Of a stretch of DNA of 64,000 nucleotides, positions 56,445 to 64,000 are shown one piece after another (the first letter of the stretch is position 1; each line of letters begins with the position of its first letter). This DNA is from Clostridia bacterium (lineage in GTDB: Bacteria; Bacillota; Clostridia; UMGS1883): the NCBI GenBank assembly GCA_045545055.1, contig JAZQAB010000011.1, positions 2,594-66,593 on the forward strand, written 5' to 3'. Position numbers and translations under genes: made by a program. A model generated the notes under the pieces. That model had not been told where the DNA came from. It saw nothing but the letters and a program-made list of their open reading frames with translations, and searched no databases.

Positions 56445-57797
56445 TCACCTTTTCTTCAAATATAAATCGGGGTCTACGGGAATGTCATTACTTACAATTT
56501 CAAAATGGAGATGTGGCCCCGTAGACCTCCCCGTGTTTCCGCTCAGGGCAATTTGCGTGTTTGCCCCCACGCTTTGCCCTGCTTTTACATTAATTGTACC
56601 AAGATGAGCATATGCTGTGACAACCCCATACCCGTGGTCGATGCGTACTAAGTTCCCGTAAGTTCCTCCGTCACCGGCATATATAACCCTGCCGCACTCT
56701 GCCGCTATCACGGGCGTTCCCTCCGGAACTGCGATGTCAATTCCCTCATGCATTTTTCCCCAACGCTCGCCGTAGGGGGAGGAAATCACCCCCTGCAAAG
56801 GGTAGAACAGCCCCGTTTTCAGGACGTCCTTTTCCTTTGTTCCCACACGGACAACCCTTGAAACAGGGGTAACGATGACATTTTCCGAAAGAATCCTTCT
56901 TGATTGGGGCATGCCGTTTTCATAAACTGTTTCTGCCTCTATCTGTGCCTTACCAACTTTTCCCTCCGTTACGGTAACGGCTTCGCCTATATAAAGGGAA
57001 TTGTCCTGTGTGGACTGTGTATCAAAAGGAATATTTTGACTTTCCGTTGTATTTACCACACTTATTACTCTCACATTATTGCTGCTTTGAAGAAGCAGAC
57101 TGCACTTTTCAGAATCCGAAATGCTGTCACTTCCCACAATGTTTGTTTTATATGTTATATTGGTAGTAATTTTTGCATCTGAGTCAACGCTGCATTCCAG
57201 AATATATTTCCGGACAACCTCCTCTGCCGTAGCCTTATCCTTGGCAGTAAAAATGGCTGTATCATCAGAATAAACCGTGCAGCCCCGTTTAAGCTTAGGA
57301 GAGCTTAAAAGTAGACTGTCACGAAGCGTATTTCCGTTTTTTATGTTGCTGCGTAAGCAAATCGTGGGTGCGGTGATAAATTGCAACTTTACATCATGTA
57401 TATTTTTTGAAGATATGAACCTCACAGCATTGTCAACCGCACTTTCATAGCTTGCCGTTCCCGAAGTCACCGCAATCTGTTTTCCATTATAATATATACC
57501 TGTCCCGATAGTAAAAAATCCGGAAAAGACCGACACGCAGCATACACATATTCCCAACGACAACACGTGCTTTGTAAAATTATGAAAAACAACGCCGCAT
57601 TGCTCTTTGCACTCTGCTATAAATGAAGAAATCGGAGCTGTGAAAGCGTTTATGTTAAATTTCCTTCTGCGAGGGAGTGTCCTTGTCTGCGTTTTGGGGA
57701 CTGCTTGCCCAAAAGGAGCTATGATGAATCCGCCGTGTCTTGGATGTTCTGCCTGCATAAAAATTCCTCCTTTGTCAGAATAAATATATGCCTGCAA
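56445..57797 (-). CDS. M23 family peptidase (LytM-type) with N-terminal TM anchor
   Basis: The C-terminal M23 motifs are intact (HEGIDIAVPEGTPV; GNTGRSTGPHLHFEI). Confidence 0.75.
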   Translation of the reverse strand: MQAYIYSDKGGIFMQAEHPRHGGFIIAPFGQAVPKTQTRTLPRRRKFNINAFTAPISSFIAECKEQCGVVFHNFTKHVLSLGICVCCVSVFSGFFTIGTGIYYNGKQIAVTSGTASYESAVDNAVRFISSKNIHDVKLQFITAPTICLRSNIKNGNTLRDSLLLSSPKLKRGCTVYSDDTAIFTAKDKATAEEVVRKYILECSVDSDAKITTNITYKTNIVGSDSISDSEKCSLLLQSSNNVRVISVVNTTESQNIPFDTQSTQDNSLYIGEAVTVTEGKVGKAQIEAETVYENGMPQSRRILSENVIVTPVSRVVRVGTKEKDVLKTGLFYPLQGVISSPYGERWGKMHEGIDIAVPEGTPVIAAECGRVIYAGDGGTYGNLVRIDHGYGVVTAYAHLGTINVKAGQSVGANTQIALSGNTGRSTGPHLHFEIVSNDIPVDPDLYLKKR

Positions 57798-57945
57798 AGG
57801 AGGAAACAGAACCTTAATTTCCCTGAAAACCGCTTGAAAAACAAATAAACATGATGTATAATGACATGGAAGGCATAACCGTTTGAGGTCTTGCCTTTTT
57901 CACGTTTATTATATTATTTTTTGGGAAAAATATCAATAATAAAAA

Positions 57946-58755
57946 TTGGGAGATGATCGATTGTATAAAATCACAGTAGGAATATTGGAGGATTTTAGAG
58001 GGCATCTGTTTAACGAGGAAAGAGCCGAGGCAACAATAAACAAATATCTGCGTGATGTAAAAGCCTTCGTAAAATGGCTCGGGGGAAAAAGGGCTACGAA
58101 GCAAGCGGTGTTGGAGTATAAGAGAACGCTTGTGGAAACACATTCTCCCTCCAGTGTTAATTCAATGCTCTCCTCACTGAATATGTTTTTCAAGTTTTTG
58201 AAAAAAACCGATCTTCAGGTTAAACTGCTCAAAATCCAGAGAAACATATTTGTCGACAGGGAAAAGGAGCTTAGTAAGGAAGAATATGAGAAATTGCTTC
58301 GGGCAGCAAAGAGTAAAAATAACGAGAGACTTTATCTGTTGATGCAGACAATCTGTTCAACGGGAATCCGTGTTTCTGAGCTACAGTTCATTACCGTAGA
58401 AGCAATAATGAGAAAAGAGGCATACATTAACTGTAAGGGAAAACACCGCCGTGTGCTTTTGCCGCAGGGCTTGTGCAAAATATTGTCCGCATATATAAAA
58501 GAAAGAAAAATCCAAAGCGGAAGTATTTTCGTAACGAAAAGCGGCAAACCTCTTGACCGTAGTAATATCTGTCACGATATGAAAAAACTGTGCAACGATG
58601 CAGGCGTTTTGCCGAGTAAGGTTTTCCCCCATAATCTCAGGCATTTGTTTGCACGAACCTATTATTCGATAGAGAAGGATATAGTGCGTCTGGCAGATAT
58701 TTTAGGACATTCGGGAATTAATACTACAAGGATTTACACTATGGAAGCAGTATAA
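57946..58755 (+). CDS. tyrosine-type site-specific recombinase/integrase
   Basis: The C-terminal catalytic box is present (HNLRHLFARTYY...LGHSGINTTRIYT, carrying R, H-x-x-R and Y). The N-terminus has a SAM-like core-binding domain. The start is TTG/ATG-uncertain. Confidence 0.8.
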   Translation: MGDDRLYKITVGILEDFRGHLFNEERAEATINKYLRDVKAFVKWLGGKRATKQAVLEYKRTLVETHSPSSVNSMLSSLNMFFKFLKKTDLQVKLLKIQRNIFVDREKELSKEEYEKLLRAAKSKNNERLYLLMQTICSTGIRVSELQFITVEAIMRKEAYINCKGKHRRVLLPQGLCKILSAYIKERKIQSGSIFVTKSGKPLDRSNICHDMKKLCNDAGVLPSKVFPHNLRHLFARTYYSIEKDIVRLADILGHSGINTTRIYTMEAV

Positions 58756-58904
58756 TGTAAAGGGCATTGAACAGATGTGTTCTTTACCTAATACATTATA
58801 TATGGCTACGGCTCATTTGCGATAAATTGAAAAGTGGTTATATATAAACAAGGCGGTGATAACCCTAAACTTGAAACCATAACCACAAACCAATTTTATC
58901 ACGA

Positions 58905-59303
58905 ATGGAGGTCAAAAACAAGATGAAAGAGAAATTTGTTAAAAACGGCATTGAGTATCTAAGACAAGGAGACTACATACCAAACTTAACCGTACCCGAT
59001 GAAGCTACATACAATATCGGCAAGTACGGAAACCTACGCAAAAGGTTTTTGAAAGAGCATCATAAGTCATTATATACCATAATGTTTATGAATGGCTCAT
59101 TGTTAAAGCACCTTGCAGAGATAGATGAAACCTGTCATAGCACCCTAAAAGATATGATGTCAAAAATGGCAGAGCAAGAAGGTGTTACGGAACAGTTAAA
59201 GGCAACAGACCAAATGGCTTGGGTACAGAAAATGAACTCAATCAAGCACAGAGCGGAAGAATTTATACTCTCGGAATATGTATATGTAATGGAGGGTGCG
59301 TAA
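58905..59303 (+). CDS. tnpV: TnpV family transposon-encoded protein
   Basis: NGIEYLRQGDYIPNL..IGKYGNLRKRFLKEHHKSLY..HLAEIDETCH..ATDQMAWVQKMNSIKHRAEEFI matches the TnpV pattern of Tn4451-like Clostridial elements. Confidence 0.55.
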   Translation: MEVKNKMKEKFVKNGIEYLRQGDYIPNLTVPDEATYNIGKYGNLRKRFLKEHHKSLYTIMFMNGSLLKHLAEIDETCHSTLKDMMSKMAEQEGVTEQLKATDQMAWVQKMNSIKHRAEEFILSEYVYVMEGA

Positions 59304-59617
59304 TGAATTTTATAGAAGAATTGTATTATGGGAATATAAATCCCAATGAAAAACGCTATAAAAAAGCTACACCCTACGACAAGGCATTAATCACATTTAC
59401 CGCTAACGAGGACAAGCTGAAAGAAGCATTATCCGGCGAACACTTGAAACTATTTAATGAGCTTGTAAATGCAAGTGATGAAATAAGTGCTACAAGTGGA
59501 GTTGAAAACTTCAAAATTGGCTTTAGGCTCGGTGTTAAGATGATGTGCGATAGTTTATTGTTTGAGGAAAACAAAGTATTCAAAGATGTTATAAAAAATG
59601 GAGGTTTTGAGCAATGA
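59303..59617 (+). CDS. conserved mobile-element hypothetical protein
   Basis: The start overlaps the tnpV stop (TAATG). MNFIEELYYGNINPNEK is a motif recurrent next to TnpV in Firmicutes elements. Confidence 0.45.
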   Translation: MNFIEELYYGNINPNEKRYKKATPYDKALITFTANEDKLKEALSGEHLKLFNELVNASDEISATSGVENFKIGFRLGVKMMCDSLLFEENKVFKDVIKNGGFEQ

Positions 59618-60177
59618 AAAAATTATTAATGGTTTTAATCACTATATCTATAATAGCAAGTGCAGTTACAGTAAATGCTGCTCTCGTTCCGAGAGAATCA
59701 GCACCCTGTAATACAACGGAGCACCAAATCATAGTTGCAGAAAGTTTTATCAGCGGAATTTTGGACGAGGTTAAAAATGGTATGGGATATGCTGATGCAA
59801 GAGCTAAATCAAACCGCATATTTTTCAATGCTTGGCTTAACGGACAGACAAGCGGTTATAGCTACGGAGAAATGACCGCTATTGCAAATAACGCAATATT
59901 CCAATACAGAGATATGTATTTAAGACCTAATTTTTACATAGAGAATGAAGAAAAGGTCAGAACGATAATTGCAGATGTTATCACACAGTACGCAAACGGA
60001 GAGATTGACCATGCGAAAGCTGAATTTAACGCAAGAGTGAAAATCTATCAGTCTGTCAATCCTGCATTTAACCCCGATGAAGAATTTGCAAAAGACACTT
60101 GCTACCGTGATATACCGTCAGTTGATAATAGCTTATTTACCATAGCAAGAAAGCTGATTTTAGAAACTAAAAAGTAA
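59614..60177 (+). CDS. secreted hypothetical protein (element cargo)
   Basis: Signal peptide MKKLLMVLITISIIASAVTVNA. Translationally coupled to the upstream gene. Confidence 0.55.
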   Translation: MKKLLMVLITISIIASAVTVNAALVPRESAPCNTTEHQIIVAESFISGILDEVKNGMGYADARAKSNRIFFNAWLNGQTSGYSYGEMTAIANNAIFQYRDMYLRPNFYIENEEKVRTIIADVITQYANGEIDHAKAEFNARVKIYQSVNPAFNPDEEFAKDTCYRDIPSVDNSLFTIARKLILETKK

Positions 60178-60300
60178 GTCATATCTTATCCTATCATATC
60201 CAAAATGTGAAAACACCCCTTGCAGACTTCAAAATCTGCAAGGGGTATTTAGTATAATCAACAAATTTTTATGTATCAGCCGTAAATATTGGAAAACATC

Positions 60301-60329
60301 TTGAAAATTATCGAATTATGGTGTATAAT
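60301..60329 (+). promoter_or_regulatory. sigma-A-type promoter inside the element
   Basis: TTGAAA (60301-60306), 17-nt spacer, then TATAAT (60324-60329). Confidence 0.4.
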
Positions 60330-60676
60330 GTGTATTGTCGGAGAAATCCGATAAGGCAAGATTTTCTTAACGGTGTAATTCACCGGCGGTTGTGCCACCT
60401 TTACATACAGGTTTTTATACCGAGTTTATGAAAGGGGGTATGCTTATGAAAAGTAAGCATTTTGCTAATGGTAAAAAAATTGCTATTTGCGATTTTAGAG
60501 ATTATCATGCTTTTGATAATTTTCTCCATAAAAGCAGAGTAACCGCCTTCGCCAAAAGTTCGGTTACTCTGTAATCTGATCTGACGGCACAACCGTTTGA
60601 GGTCTTGCCTTTTTCTATAATTATTATATACTCTAATTCTTATTTTGTCAACAGAAATAGTGAAAGTTTTACGATT

Positions 60677-60718
60677 TGCACAAAACTATGGGATTTTCAA
60701 TAGTTTTGTGCATTTTTT
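60677..60718 (+). terminator. bidirectional intrinsic terminator
   Basis: tgcacaaaactat / atagttttgtgca is a perfect 13-bp stem followed by TTTTTT. Confidence 0.7.
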
Positions 60719-61619
60719 AATCCTTGTTTTTCTTCCTCGTCTTATACACATTATATCTGTTCTTACATTGGGTGCTGCAAAATACAGCATTAGGACGGCT
60801 TGCGATATATACCTCTTGACAATGCTTGCAAAGTCGAAGCGGATTTTTTTCATCGGTCAAAGATGTGCTGAACATAAGACGAATAACATTTGAAAGTGAG
60901 TAAAAATCCCATACAAGAACAGGCTTATCTTCTTTAAGTGCTATATGATATGTCGGTGCAATTCCGTCATATACCAAAATACTACGCTGATATAACTGCT
61001 TTTGTTCATCTGTAAGTGTTGCCTTATCATCATAAAATATTGTACTTGTTATAAATGTAAATGCCCAATCCTTAAACTGCATTTTTATCCAATCCAAAGG
61101 CTCGGCATATAGCTTTTGCAGACATAGTGCAAATGCCATTGGCTCATTACTTAATGTAAGGGCAAGTGCCATAGAACCTACATCACCGCCGACATCCCAT
61201 CTGCTCTCTTTGCCGTTTTTTGAAAGCTCCGGTTTTTCAAAGGGGAAGAAATATCCCAAATAGCTGAATGTGTTCATACTTTCATCTTCGATAAACGGAT
61301 TTTTTGTTAAATATACAGCATCATAATCCATAAAAGACGGTGTTGTGGGAATTGCAGTCATAATTCCAAGCAAACCGAAATCCTTAACGAATTTCATTAT
61401 AGCCTTATCTATCTTTTTTTCATCTTCTCTTGCAATAAGCATTTTTCCGATGTTTATAGCTCCTACTACAAGCTGTTCGGAAACATCAAAAGGTTTATAC
61501 ATTGTTGGTGTTGCGTTGCTTTTGGGTGTAATATAATCAACACCGTTGTCTGCTTTCTTTATTTCATAGTCAGAGTATTTAACCCAAATTGATTTAGTGT
61601 TTTCAAATATATTTTTCAT
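60717..61619 (-). CDS. hypothetical protein with C-terminal zinc-ribbon (CxxC...CxxC)
   Basis: The probable start is MKNIFENT, with RBS aggagg on the minus strand. The C-terminus is CKHCQEVYIASRPNAVFCSTQCKNRY. Confidence 0.5.
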   Translation of the reverse strand: MKNIFENTKSIWVKYSDYEIKKADNGVDYITPKSNATPTMYKPFDVSEQLVVGAINIGKMLIAREDEKKIDKAIMKFVKDFGLLGIMTAIPTTPSFMDYDAVYLTKNPFIEDESMNTFSYLGYFFPFEKPELSKNGKESRWDVGGDVGSMALALTLSNEPMAFALCLQKLYAEPLDWIKMQFKDWAFTFITSTIFYDDKATLTDEQKQLYQRSILVYDGIAPTYHIALKEDKPVLVWDFYSLSNVIRLMFSTSLTDEKNPLRLCKHCQEVYIASRPNAVFCSTQCKNRYNVYKTRKKNKD

Positions 61620-61833
61620 AATCAGCCTCCTGTATGTTTCGACTAAATATATAAACGGAATCGGTATTTGCCCCTGCTTTGAGGGCAAATACCATTTCTT
61701 TTTAAATTGCAGTAAAATGTACTATTCATAGCTTTTACCTCGTATTTGTATAATCTACATTTATTAGTTTTTATCGTAAATTGAGCACGCTTAATAGACT
61801 TGCTCATATAATTTTCTTTTTCATTTTTTGGCA

Positions 61834-62553
61834 TTATTTGCTTTCTTCATTTTCAATATTCAATTTTTCTCTCAGTTTTTCTTCGTATCGTTTCAAAAAT
61901 GCCCGTTCTGTAATCGTGAAATCGTGATGCTGCTTTGCTTCATCAGAGGAAAGATATTTATATATCTTATCCTGTATTATGCCAATCATCTTTGCCCATT
62001 TTTTGCGGATATTTTTATCGGTACAGCCTTCGAGCTTTGCATATTCCGAATTACTGTAGCCTTCTATTGCTCTGTAATACAGAAGCTCTTTGTATGATGG
62101 CTTTAAATCCCGTAATATCTCATACAGATATTTTTCAGTCATATGCTCTTGGATTTCATATGGGGAGTCATAAATTATCTCCAAGAAATTCCCCTTGAAC
62201 GCTTGCCGGAGCATATGTATGTTAGTAGCAAAGTTAGTGCCTATTGCTGCACCGAGTTCAAGAGGAAAATCCTCGTCATTGCGGTAAATCTCGTGATAGC
62301 GTTCCTTGCGTTCACGGTTACTGTCAAGTCTGTTCCATTGCTTTATAACTTCTTTAAAATCTTTTTCGGTTACAGCACTTTCTTCAAGTCTTTTGAGAGC
62401 TTCCGCTTCAATATCTCGTTTGAGCATTTTATGGTGTGGACTTACGATTGCAACATCGGTTTCAGATTGTGAAACAGCGGCATTTTCAAAATCAGCCTGT
62501 GTTTGTGGCTGCTTATGCATTTTGATATTCTTTTTGCTGTCCATAGAATACAC
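61834..62553 (-). CDS. sigma-70 region-4-like HTH protein (mobile-element regulator)
   Basis: YKELLYYRAIEGYSNSEYAKLEGCTDKNIRKKWAKM resembles the sigma r4 / ECF-type HTH. The rest of the protein is a charged coiled region. Confidence 0.45.
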   Translation of the reverse strand: MYSMDSKKNIKMHKQPQTQADFENAAVSQSETDVAIVSPHHKMLKRDIEAEALKRLEESAVTEKDFKEVIKQWNRLDSNRERKERYHEIYRNDEDFPLELGAAIGTNFATNIHMLRQAFKGNFLEIIYDSPYEIQEHMTEKYLYEILRDLKPSYKELLYYRAIEGYSNSEYAKLEGCTDKNIRKKWAKMIGIIQDKIYKYLSSDEAKQHHDFTITERAFLKRYEEKLREKLNIENEESK

Positions 62554-62739
62554 CGCTTAATCACCTACTGTCAGTTAAAATGTTAAATTTTCAAAGTACA
62601 ATTTAAAAAGGTTCCGTTTTACCCCTTGAATTTCTCCTATATACAGAGGGGTGTAATATGTTTAATTTCAAAACATATTATCATAAGTATTATATACTAT
62701 TCTCTCTGATTTGTCAATAGTATTGGAGGAATTGAAATT

Positions 62740-64000
<1,261 letters not shown>

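Follow-up and report, generated by a model that had tools for sequence, protein, structure and literature searches.

Direct repeats around a clostridial tyrosine recombinase gene probably belong to type I toxin-antitoxin-like modules that overlap a Tn4451-like element

When short direct repeats flank a recombinase gene, they are routinely taken for att sites. In a 64,000-nucleotide stretch of Clostridia bacterium DNA (UMGS1883; contig JAZQAB010000011.1), referred to here as the window, a direct repeat of 29 nt with one mismatch (57873-57901 and 60587-60615) brackets a tyrosine recombinase gene, and an earlier note made from the letters alone had described a 2.7-kb integrated element ending in these repeats. 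Do the repeats mark the ends of an element, or do they belong to something else? The repeat is as near-perfect as described. The match can be extended to 33 nt with two mismatches (57869-57901 and 60583-60615), and its exact 24-mer core, AACCGTTTGAGGTCTTGCCTTTTT, starts at 57877 and 60591; it was absent from 100 dinucleotide shuffles, even when up to 3 mismatches were tolerated. Pfam bore out the tyrosine recombinase, TnpV, and small protein that the note had placed between the repeats, the small protein belonging to DUF6809, and the adjoining M23 peptidase gene is also where the note put it. The best explanation of the locus, to which we assign a high probability, is a joint one: the repeats of a type I toxin-antitoxin (TA)-like module overlap a Tn4451-like element that is inserted in a resident int gene. 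The genes and the junction are as follows.

56445-57797, minus strand: M23/G5 peptidase gene, immediately left of the repeats (Pfam)
57946-58755, plus strand: Xer-like tyrosine recombinase (int), probable start 57961 (Pfam Phage_integrase, E = 9.7e-27; NCBIfam)
58744-58745, no strand: GA dinucleotide, left junction (attL crossover; identity switch in four independent int backgrounds)
58746-64000, plus strand: visible part of an integrative mobilizable element, running off the window (same gene order in relatives L128, L129, and L131-L135)
58905/58923-59303, plus strand: TnpV (PF14198, E = 2.9e-40)
59303-59617, plus strand: DUF6809 protein (PF20648, E = 2.5e-22)
59614-60177, plus strand: 187-aa predicted secreted all-helical protein (N-terminal signal-like helix; no Pfam family)
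60717-61688, minus strand: conserved element protein of about 300 aa with a C-terminal zinc-ribbon-like motif, probable start 61622 (weak NinG/HNH-like matches only; syntenic in all copies)
61834-62553, minus strand: sigma-70 region-4-like protein (sub-threshold matches only: Pfam Sigma70_r4_2, E = 6.8e-5, 22.9 bits, cutoff 25.7; NCBIfam sigma70-ECF, E = 2.1e-6, 27.5 bits, cutoff 42.9)
62740-62922, plus strand: TnpW (PF14202, E = 1.6e-13)
62937-64000, plus strand: large serine recombinase of the TnpX/TndX type, N-terminal 354 aa, running off the window (family matches)

The int gene was found in the same place in relatives. The order M23-int-TetR...NrdR is conserved in relatives without the repeat, and in five related contigs (M23 83-85% identical) int lies beside M23 in the same order, with the 24-mer absent throughout those loci. 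Nucleotide identity of the window int is 78-92% with the int genes beside M23 in L049, L123, and L124 and falls to 40-70% with those of L110 and L039. In unoccupied relatives, int ends in ...RIYTMETGDVHRVQIQRLGLLIC*, while in the window this native C-terminal tail is replaced by Ala-Val-stop from the inserted element. Judged by this synteny, the window tyrosine recombinase is a resident chromosomal gene, and 57869-58745 is vertically inherited chromosome. The interval between the repeats is chimeric.

The change of origin can be placed at a GA dinucleotide five codons past the catalytic Tyr codon of int, where the identity between the window and its relatives rises from about 45-73% before to 85-100% after. 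From 58746, this 85-100% identical DNA follows four unrelated int backgrounds, and by that measure, the sequence onward is mobile-element DNA. The conserved left end, GA followed by AGC(A/G)GTATAATGTAAAGG, is present in the window, and matching right junctions, in which ...TAT is followed by GA, are found in L131, L134, and L135. These three loci hold full elements with GA at both junctions, and the split resident int resumes exactly past the right one. Each of the nine observed junctions falls within an int gene. The bases just upstream of the crossover are variable (ATG, ATA, GTT, or TCG), and only the GA is identical. Insertion appears to be specific for two conserved motifs of tyrosine recombinase genes, ..RVSE.. 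and ..YTME.., and to fall in their catalytic-motif codons.

Over 61694-64000, the window is 93.5% identical to L130 at the nucleotide level. Beyond the part visible in the window, the elements of relatives continue with (ParM-like), DUF3847, MobA/MobL relaxase, cargo, and their own int, which lies about 100 nt from the right end, for a total of about 14.5 kb. In L071, a Mob/Pre-like gene, recognized by eye, stands in place of MobA_MobL, and L133 shows tandem or nested accretion of elements. Full-length homologs of the serine recombinase have 620 aa, are up to 99% identical, and combine Resolvase, Recombinase, Zn_ribbon_recom, and DUF4368 domains. The 187-aa protein is present in all element copies; its homologs form 1,842 clusters, all unnamed, and its AF2 model (pLDDT, 84) gave no fold match against the PDB. 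It had been taken for a secreted cargo protein. The signal-like helix stands, but the protein, by its distribution, belongs to the conserved core of the element. The cargo slot follows it and holds the TA module here and AbiE or Gabija-like genes in other copies.

Judged by its gene set and junctions, the element at GA 58744-58745 is a Tn4451-like integrative mobilizable element. Its serine recombinase would excise it as a circle, the joint of which would create a TTGACA-17-TATAAT promoter reading into tnpV, and the circle would reinsert at GA within the conserved motifs of tyrosine recombinase genes. Reconstruction of the circular joint from relatives gave TTGACA-17 nt-TATAAT in two element variants; the window shows only the -10 half (TATAAT, 58751-58756). 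The right end of the window element would lie beyond 64000 and read ...TTGACA(N11-12)AT followed by GA, then the displaced int tail AACAGGTGATGTTCAC, and then the TetR gene.

What, then, are the repeats? Using exact 24-mer matching, we found the core at at least 118 loci in uncultured Clostridia, with several copies per genome and almost all without any window gene. The surroundings of the core, compared across loci, indicate that the repeat is the conserved part of an RNA-level module. By this comparison, the 29-bp repeats are the invariant 3' tails of two copies of a small toxin/antisense-RNA module and not element ends; the right repeat is part of a complete module, and the left repeat belongs to the same module minus the toxin. 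The parts of the two copies are listed below.

57834-57862, plus strand: toxin-type promoter TTGAAA-17-TATAAT of the remnant module (scan, 11/12; aligns with the complete-module promoter of L049)
57869-57901, plus strand: left repeat, hairpin 2 (57872-57895) and T-run of the toxin-deleted remnant (three-way alignment with L049)
57908-57936, minus strand: orphan antisense (antitoxin-type) promoter TTGATA-17-TATAAT (scan; orthologous sequence in L049)
60301-60329, plus strand: toxin mRNA promoter TTGAAA-17-TATAAT of the complete module (promoter scan, near-consensus, 11/12)
60336-60615, plus strand: predicted toxin mRNA, about 280 nt (MFE fold with 5'-3' closure and paired SD)
60337-60352, plus strand: predicted 5' hairpin of the toxin mRNA
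60353-60362 and 60385-60396, plus strand: leader segments a and b of the toxin mRNA, predicted to pair with the mRNA 3' end
60395-60402 and 60431-60439, plus strand: predicted anti-SD and SD of the toxin mRNA
60440-60460, plus strand: predicted toxin mRNA hairpin after the SD
60468-60542, plus strand: putative toxin ORF MVKKLLFAILEIIMLLIIFSIKAE, 24 aa, hydrophobic (26 aa if TTG at 60462 is the start; frame conservation)
60535-60571, no strand: hairpin 1, bidirectional terminator common to the toxin mRNA and the antisense RNA (stem in 116 of 116 copies)
60583-60615, plus strand: right repeat, invariant hairpin 2 (60586-60609) and T-run (repeat match; module comparison)
60527-60616, minus strand: predicted antisense RNA of about 90 nt, putative antitoxin (placed from promoter and terminator)
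60623-60651, minus strand: antisense-RNA promoter, perfect TTGACA-17-TATAAT (scan, 12/12)

At the RNA level, the right repeat is predicted to end the toxin mRNA and to form the hairpin with which the antisense RNA begins. The left copy equals the L049 module minus about 225 nt, with the leader, toxin ORF, and hairpin 1 gone, and in a three-way alignment of L049, the left copy, and the right module, the deletion is internal and clean, with GGCA microhomologies on both sides. Its orphan antisense promoter has lost the terminator and is directed at the M23 gene.

Two other histories of the interval have to be weighed against this account. The 2.7-kb element of the earlier note, with its own tyrosine integrase and with attL and attR derived from a 29-bp attB, would suit a recombinase gene bracketed by repeats and a hairpin that, as an imperfect palindrome with 9-bp arms and a 6-bp spacer, resembles a tyrosine-recombinase core site; L049 likewise has the 24-mer directly upstream of int. 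We consider it largely refuted and scarcely tenable, because int adjoins M23 in five related contigs that lack any 24-mer, the sequence origin between the repeats switches at 58744, and the left copy is accounted for by deletion inside a full module. Moreover, an int homolog is nearby in only 5 of the 118 loci with the 24-mer (L039, L049, L105, and L110; none in L071), and the other copies of the TnpV block (L039/L128, L110, L105, L134, and L135) have the 24-mer once and never upstream of int. The note had itself named single repeats and syntenic chromosomal genes as evidence against its proposal, and both M23-int synteny without the repeat and TnpV blocks with one 24-mer were found. What survives of that proposal is the mobile, Tn4451-like identity of part of the interval; the 2.7-kb unit, the reading of the repeats as attL and attR, and the role of int as the element's integrase do not, int being only 45-73% identical where the DNA downstream is 85-100% identical. 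A different history, that the larger element was integrated by its own right-end tyrosine recombinase or entered via homologous recombination between int genes, is rather unlikely. Every junction seen lies inside an int homolog, and the element's int occupies the usual integrase position close to the right end. However, a crossover identity of GA only fits a serine recombinase and not the 6- to 8-bp overlap of tyrosine recombinases, the junction falls at the same base in int genes that share only 45-73% identity, which speaks against homologous recombination, and both the joint promoter and the tnpV/tnpW/tnpX gene set match Tn4451. The serine recombinase is probably the one that acts on the element.

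The module to which the repeats belong, about 350 nt long, has an architecture that is constant across loci: promoter, structured leader with masked ribosome-binding site, ORF, terminator, hairpin, and convergent promoter. The invariance of hairpin 2 is partly a matter of construction, since the loci were ascertained by exact 24-mer match. The antisense promoter is perfect in 105 of 122 copies and scores at least 11/12 in 118 of 122, at a fixed distance to the hairpin in all, while control windows almost never reach 10/12 or more; by consensus match, it is stronger than the toxin promoter. A hydrophobic ORF of 20 to 27 aa is kept in 99 of 116 copies, and in 98 of these 99 its C terminus is basic, with K or R within the last four residues. 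The remaining 17 are toxin-less orphans, a common form, and retain the antisense part. The frame of 60468-60542, with an ATG or GTG start, is kept in all E-type modules, and the peptide it encodes has 24 to 26 aa across relatives. The strong internal promoter of the earlier note is the one at 60301-60329, but the 44/48-aa frame that it was said to drive (60440-60574) is not the conserved one.

In every one of the 116 copies, the stem of hairpin 1 runs without a gap for 7 bp or more (median, 12 bp); 50 different arm pairs occur and show compensatory changes, and the mean MFE of -19.0 compares with -10.5 after shuffling. Two motifs of the leader, GCGGTTATGCC and AAGG(C/T)AAGA(C/T), are conserved though they lie outside the search pattern, and in four cases (the window, L102, L067, and L087) they covary with the 3' side; these are few events, and some copies (L079b and L107) have mismatches. 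All 86 complete modules close 5' to 3' in the MFE fold, and the SD is mostly paired, with a mean unpaired probability of about 0.17. The antisense RNA folds into hairpin 2 and hairpin 1 at -30.9 kcal/mol. The genes around the modules vary widely (the largest cluster among 837 ORFs has 8), and tandem module arrays (L012, L079, L104, L068, and L116) have identical flanks around differing toxin/hairpin-1 cores. Rfam scans (E ≤ 1) covering the window region and six loci had a single hit at the modules, to the BsrG model at one locus (E = 0.37). Searches of the module peptides against Pfam and NCBIfam gave no relevant match, one peptide hitting Class_IIIsignal (PF04021) below threshold (E = 0.027), nor did the peptides match known toxin families, including Fst. 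No match to the module was found in phage and plasmid collections. The family is spread widely among uncultured Clostridia of gut and rumen and is apparently undescribed.

By sequence, the module has a small ORF of <60 aa with a charged C terminus, a cis antisense gene, and a predicted translationally masked mRNA. Its architecture is that of a type I TA system, with RNA ends and function predicted. Known hallmarks of such systems are multicopy patchy spread, orphans, an antisense promoter that outdoes the toxin promoter, a masked SD with 5'-3' locking of the mRNA, and residence on mobile elements (the T1TAdb paper, PMC8594479; a review, PMC6563280). In the proposed mechanism, the near-consensus promoter would yield an mRNA of about 280 nt encoding the hydrophobic peptide, and the leader would pair with the mRNA's own 3' end (hairpin 2), the ribosome-binding site being masked. 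The perfect-consensus convergent promoter beyond hairpin 2 would drive an antisense RNA of about 90 nt that stops at the shared bidirectional terminator and is complementary to the toxin mRNA 3' end and last codons. Pairing of the two RNAs would lead to mRNA decay, with no peptide made while the module is present, and carrier DNA would therefore be stabilized by it. Counting against this explanation, blocking the mRNA 3' end in silico left SD accessibility unchanged, and the start codon of the window module type lies about 28 nt past the SD, behind a hairpin.

It is also conceivable, though distinctly unlikely in our judgment, that the module is not a TA system. It would then be either the gene for a small membrane peptide regulated by antisense RNA in cis or simply a strong bidirectional terminator/promoter insulator. 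Short hydrophobic peptides can act as regulatory subunits, which counts for this reading, and toxicity is inferred for peptides that match no known toxin family. The multicopy, patchy occurrence in unrelated contexts, the frequent toxin-less orphans keeping the antisense part, the antisense promoter exceeding the toxin promoter, and the masked SD in a 5'-3'-locked mRNA argue against it, as does the position in a mobile-element cargo slot that elsewhere holds AbiE or Gabija-like genes. The conserved hairpin might instead serve additionally as a DNA recombination site (attC- or dif-like) at which Xer-like recombinases move or shuffle cassettes, an idea we hold to be very improbable. The tandem arrays with identical flanks and different cores would suit it, as would a palindrome-like hairpin 2 that is extremely conserved compared with hairpin 1. 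However, the duplication boundaries lie outside the hairpin, the shared sequence including about 60 nt past it and the whole leader, a pattern that fits unequal or homologous exchange. Most loci have no linked recombinase, and the three-way RNA pairing of antisense hairpin, mRNA 3' hairpin, and leader already accounts for the conservation. A dual hairpin, both RNA pairing element and DNA site for Xer-like cassette capture in an integron-like system of type I TA cassettes, is equally doubtful; the Tn4451-like element inserts in genes of that Xer-like family. In a milder variant of this reading, the toxin-less chromosomal copy beside int would supply antisense RNA against the module of the incoming element and so disarm it, in the manner of an anti-addiction device.

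Under the preferred reading, type I TA-like modules overlapping a Tn4451-like element, the locus illustrates that a multicopy, sequence-invariant RNA element can mimic att repeats, a point that applies beyond this locus. It also offers two testable objects. One is a large type I TA-like family in uncultured Oscillospirales-type Clostridia, whose RNA ends can be predicted cleanly and in whose 5'-3' lock the 3' partner is what the antisense RNA targets; to our knowledge, type I systems in Clostridia have so far been known essentially only from Clostridioides difficile. The other is a Tn4451-like mobilizable element with a tyrosine-recombinase-gene target and a swap-in cargo slot (TA, AbiE, or Gabija-like). 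Both are relevant to the spread of mobile DNA and defense genes through gut and rumen communities. They belong to known kinds and establish no new principle.

In par (Fst/RNA I-RNA II of Enterococcus faecalis pAD1), repeats make both RNAs complementary at their 5' ends. The present module shares with par the convergent toxin and antitoxin RNAs, the shared bidirectional terminator, and repeats that link the 5' leader to the antitoxin region, but here it is the 3' end of the same mRNA to which the leader, similar to the antisense RNA, is complementary. With bsrG/SR4 and txpA/RatA of Bacillus subtilis, it has in common a small hydrophobic toxin, a convergent antisense RNA over the mRNA 3' end, and prophage or mobile DNA as location (PMC8594479). 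It differs in having no sequence or covariance-model similarity to them (apart from the one BsrG hit above), in its shorter peptides (20 to 27 aa), and in a toxin leader that carries a second, same-sense copy of the antisense 5' hairpin. The C. difficile type I systems (CD0956.2/RCd10 and others) are likewise convergent, hosted by Clostridia, and associated with mobile DNA (PMC6563280), whereas their toxins have 34 to 59 aa and are unrelated in sequence to the present peptides. As in hok/sok and aapA/IsoA (PMC6733600), the full-length mRNA is closed by 5'-3' pairing (predicted here) with the SD masked; those families are Gram negative and their antisense RNA acts at the 5' region, while the present one covers the 3' partner of the lock.

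Among mobile elements, Tn6104 inserts in traG of Tn5252-like ICEs via a serine recombinase (PMC5704250, Table). The present element resembles Tn6104-type IMEs in its apparently site-specific insertion, probably by a serine recombinase, in a conserved gene common on mobile elements, which allows the tandem or nested accretion seen in L133, but its target is an Xer-like tyrosine recombinase gene, for which we found no example as an IME target in the literature examined. Tn4451 crosses over at a 2-bp GA (PMC5704250). It needs only TnpX and forms a promoter at the circular joint (PMC5704250; Lyras and Rood, 2000, cited in PMC13023037). The present element shares with Tn4451/Tn4453 of Clostridium perfringens and C. 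difficile the TnpX-type large serine recombinase, TnpV, TnpW, the GA crossover, and a mobilization relaxase; the -35/-10 promoter at its joint, as reconstructed from relatives, would be a further likeness. Unlike them, it spans about 14.5 kb instead of 6.3 kb, has its joint upstream of tnpV and not tnpX, carries a MobA/MobL relaxase in place of the MobV-type TnpZ, and adds a tyrosine recombinase, ParM-like and sigma-like genes, and the variable defense/TA cargo slot. Tn4451 uses many GA sites with low target specificity, whereas insertion of the present element is apparently restricted to the two int motifs. Given its MobA_MobL relaxase and its span, the element is therefore a relative of the Tn4451/3 group rather than a member of the group proper.

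The direct repeat described in the earlier note is present: 57873-57901 and 60587-60615 differ at one of 29 nt, extending the match to 33 nt brings the mismatches to two, and an exact 24-mer common to both, AACCGTTTGAGGTCTTGCCTTTTT, starts at 57877 and at 60591. In 100 dinucleotide shuffles the 24-mer did not occur, even with up to 3 mismatches allowed. The genes between the repeats are also as described, namely, a tyrosine recombinase gene (int) and genes for TnpV (E = 2.9e-40), a DUF6809 protein, and a 187-aa protein with a signal-like N terminus, as are the near-consensus internal promoter at 60301-60329 and the M23 peptidase gene directly to the left. To the right lie genes for a ~300-aa protein, a sigma-like protein, TnpW, and a large serine recombinase running off the window. 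The reading of 57873-60615 as a single 2.7-kb element bounded by att sites and carrying its own recombinase did not hold. We conclude with high confidence that the interval is a chimera of three parts, a chromosomal spacer with a decayed RNA module, a resident recombinase gene, and 1.9 kb from the start of a larger Tn4451-like element, and, just as firmly, that the supposed att repeats are two copies of one RNA element.

A scan of one genome per species found at least 118 loci with the exact 24-mer; among the matches listed, all were in uncultured Clostridia/Oscillospiraceae metagenome-assembled genomes from gut and rumen, often several per genome. When the loci (L numbers below) were lined up on the 24-mer, those among the matches listed shared one architecture throughout:

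Part 1: promoter, at the upstream end
Part 2: leader containing AAGG(C/T)AAGA(C/T) and GCGGTTATGCC
Part 3: anti-SD/SD hairpin
Part 4: hydrophobic ORF of 20 to 27 aa with a basic end, e.g., MDNEYIISFMIILLLLVISIKK and MGKYILRIIFLIIVFLIALTKKVR
Part 5: variable hairpin (hairpin 1) between an A-run and a T-run
Part 6: spacer of ~20 nt
Part 7: GGCAT plus the 24-mer, forming the second hairpin (hairpin 2), with a T-run
Part 8: promoter on the minus strand, at a fixed 8 nt

The forward promoter usually reads TTGAAA-17-TATAAT. Among the matches listed, 105 of 122 copies have a minus-strand promoter with the perfect sequence TTGACA-17-TATAAT, and 118 of 122 have one scoring 11/12 or better; random 50-nt windows of the same loci almost never reached 10/12. 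The hydrophobic ORF is kept in 99 of the 116 copies examined among these matches, with K or R within the last four residues in 98 of the 99, and 17 of the 116 are toxin-less or truncated orphan modules. In the same matches, hairpin 1 has an ungapped stem in every copy (116/116; median, 12 bp) built from 50 different arm pairs, such as ATAACGC/GCGTTAT, ATAGCCC/GGGCTAT, ATGACCG/CGGTCAT, and GTAACCG/CGGTTAC; since so many arm pairs keep the stem, its variation is compensatory. When the antisense region was aligned with MAFFT and folded with RNAalifold, hairpin 2 alone was recovered because the length of hairpin 1 varies, and a per-sequence stem search was used instead to detect hairpin 1. The genes around the listed loci show extreme diversity, the largest cluster among 837 ORFs having 8 members. 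From this organization, we infer that the module is a toxin-antitoxin pair, whose antisense RNA would act by pairing and decay. Tandem modules occur at L012 3700-4360, L079 7340-7990, and L104 7160-7830; their promoters, leaders, and 3' flanks are near-identical and their toxins and terminator hairpins come from different subfamilies, which suggests that the central part may be exchanged when the conserved flanks recombine.

The leader motifs of part 2, read as reverse complement, give both arms of the 3' hairpin. In each of the 86 complete modules, the minimum-energy fold of the full-length transcript closes the 5' leader onto the 3' end, and both segments are paired in 68. The pairing covaries: C rather than T before the 24-mer (window and L102) goes with G rather than A in the leader, further two-sided changes occur in L067 and L087, G-U intermediates in L104b and L021, and one mismatch in each of L079b and L107. 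The folds thus predict that the module also has a hok/aapA-like 5'-3' lock. In silico, the SD is mostly paired (unpaired probability of ~0.17, with or without the 3' end blocked), and antisense binding did not change its exposure. In the subfamily of the window's module (60440-60468; also L104, L110, L072, L039, and others), a conserved 7-bp hairpin, ATGCTTA-TGAAAAG-TAAGCAT, lies between the SD and the conserved start codon; if it folds, the SD and the start would be no more than ~7 nt apart, and it may be a structure-dependent initiation device. The apparent conservation of MLMKSKH is due to this hairpin.

The right copy in the window is complete:

60301-60329: toxin promoter
~60336-60615: predicted mRNA (~280 nt)
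60385-60396: leader segment b, predicted to pair with the 3' end
60468-60542: ORF
60535-60571: hairpin 1
60586-60609: hairpin 2
60651-60623, minus strand: antisense promoter
60616-~60527, minus strand: predicted antisense RNA (~90 nt)

The 44/48-aa ORF proposed earlier as the product is in the wrong frame: L049 lacks that start, the C terminus would run through the variable hairpin, and the conserved frame is the hydrophobic one, with an ATG or GTG start. On either side, the left copy can be aligned with a complete module that L049 (M23 83% identical) has between M23 and int. It has lost the ~225 nt from leader through toxin ORF to hairpin 1, between two GGCA microhomologies, and has kept its promoter, hairpin 2, and antisense promoter. 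A second, weaker direct repeat (57825-57863 and 60292-60330; 39 nt, 74% identity) corresponds to the toxin promoters of both modules and supports their common origin. The orphan antisense promoter of the left copy, TTGATA-17-TATAAT (57908-57936, minus strand), faces the M23 gene (56445-57797). Its terminator hairpin, still in place in L049, is gone, and so the promoter, aimed straight at M23, may contribute to M23 transcription.

Five contigs reached through M23 homologues (83 to 85% identical) have the order GroEL-GroES-188-aa protein-M23-int-TetR-92-aa protein-~1,400-aa protein...NrdR-RpiB-TsaD-TsaE, and the 24-mer is absent throughout them with up to 4 mismatches allowed. The recombinase gene is hence a resident one. 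In a sliding comparison, window 57942-58744 is 78 to 92% identical to the M23-adjacent int genes and 40 to 70% identical to the int of L110 and L039; from ~58744 on, its identity to L110 and L039 is 93 to 100%, and it has no relation to the chromosomal relatives. The switch falls at the same base in four int backgrounds (window, L128 [=L039], L110, and L129) that are only 45 to 73% identical to one another, and on this ground an origin of the junction by homologous exchange between int genes was rejected. The conserved left end is GA followed by AGC(A/G)GTATAATGTAAAGG, with GA at 58744-58745; unoccupied int genes end in RIYTMETGDVHRVQIQRLGLLIC and a stop, and occupied ones in YT(M/I/V)EAV and a stop. 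Exact-protein lookups with the secreted protein, M23, GroES, and the 100%-identical M23 cluster (P0001) gave no match, and a metagenome scan with M23 found just two contigs, distant and short. The Xer-like target int genes and the element's own int usually lie beside very large SLH/Flg_new/Big-domain surface-protein genes, a hint that they may natively take part in surface-protein variation:

L123, 3177-9867
L131, 1080-4934
L129, 1-982
L134, 14774-20743

The whole element was read from contigs reached through homologues of the serine recombinase (620 aa, Resolvase + Recombinase + Zn-ribbon + DUF4368). From the left GA, it carries TnpV, (DUF6809), the secreted protein, a cargo slot, the ~300-aa protein (minus strand), the sigma-like protein (minus strand), TnpW, and the serine recombinase, and then (ParM-like), DUF3847, a MobA/MobL relaxase, a second cargo slot, its own int with native tail, ~100 nt, and the right GA; its size in L135 is ~14.5 kb. 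That int genes are the insertion sites is confirmed at the right junctions. In L131, CCCTTGACAAACATCGTAT and GA precede the tail that was displaced from the resident int (ESGEEHMRQLQRLGLLRC, stop); in L134 and L135, the element occupies a second site, after GIRVSE, and the resident int resumes exactly (ELCYITVE) past TTGACAAAATGTTTAT and GA. In both variants, joining the right end to the left end in sequence reconstructs TTGACA-17 nt-TATAAT across the joint. At the left end (58751-58800), an imperfect palindrome, TATAATGTAAAGGGCATTGAACA / TGTTCTTTACCTAATACATTATA, overlaps the -10 half of this joint promoter; a recombinase or a repressor could bind there. L133 5375-21851 holds two such elements in tandem, the second at the YTME site in the first's own int.

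The first cargo slot (60178-60716, between the secreted-protein and ~300-aa genes) is a cargo hotspot:

Window, L128, L110, and L133 to L135: toxin-antitoxin module
L131, 6182-7845: AbiEii
L129, 2229-7823: AbiEii plus OLD/TOPRIM and UvrD-like (Gabija-like) genes

We are highly confident that the slot in the window carries, by coincidence, another copy of the module family found in the chromosomal spacer. The secreted protein (59614-60177) belongs to a very common family without a name (1,842 clusters), in which 90% or more of the homologues aligned have two conserved cysteines; its confidently predicted, all-helical structure had no fold match in the PDB. Only 58746-64000 of the element is visible in the window, of which 61694-64000 shares 93.5% identity with L130; in L130, DUF3847 and MobA/MobL come next. 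A 380-bp stretch from the start of the ~300-aa gene to the end of the sigma-like gene (61507-61886) is 92.7% identical to L129 15760-16140, a second site there, downstream of the relaxase gene. If the insertion model is true, ~9 to 10 kb past 64000 there should be a right end of CCCTTGACAAA(N7-8)AT and GA, and then the int tail that was displaced, AACAGGTGATGTTCACAGGGT, and the gene for TetR.

In plasmid and phage collections, the serine recombinase and int had weak matches only and the module had none; IMG/VR contains just two exact 24-mers. Rfam has no family for the module (sole match, BsrG at one locus, E = 0.37), and its peptides were not recognized by Pfam or NCBIfam. A 2019 review of Clostridia lists type I systems essentially only for C. 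difficile, with toxins of 34 to 59 aa (PMC6563280), whereas the peptide predicted here has 20 to 27 aa. The 5'-3' mRNA lock of hok/aapA is, by predicted fold, shared. Tn4451/Tn4453 have a 2-bp GA crossover for which TnpX is sufficient, and their circular intermediate forms a promoter (PMC5704250; Lyras & Rood 2000, by its title as cited in PMC13023037). The GA junctions of our element match this crossover; its joint, as reconstructed from relatives, would form such a promoter, of which the window shows the -10 half (58751-58756), and its serine recombinase, rather than its int, would do the cutting.
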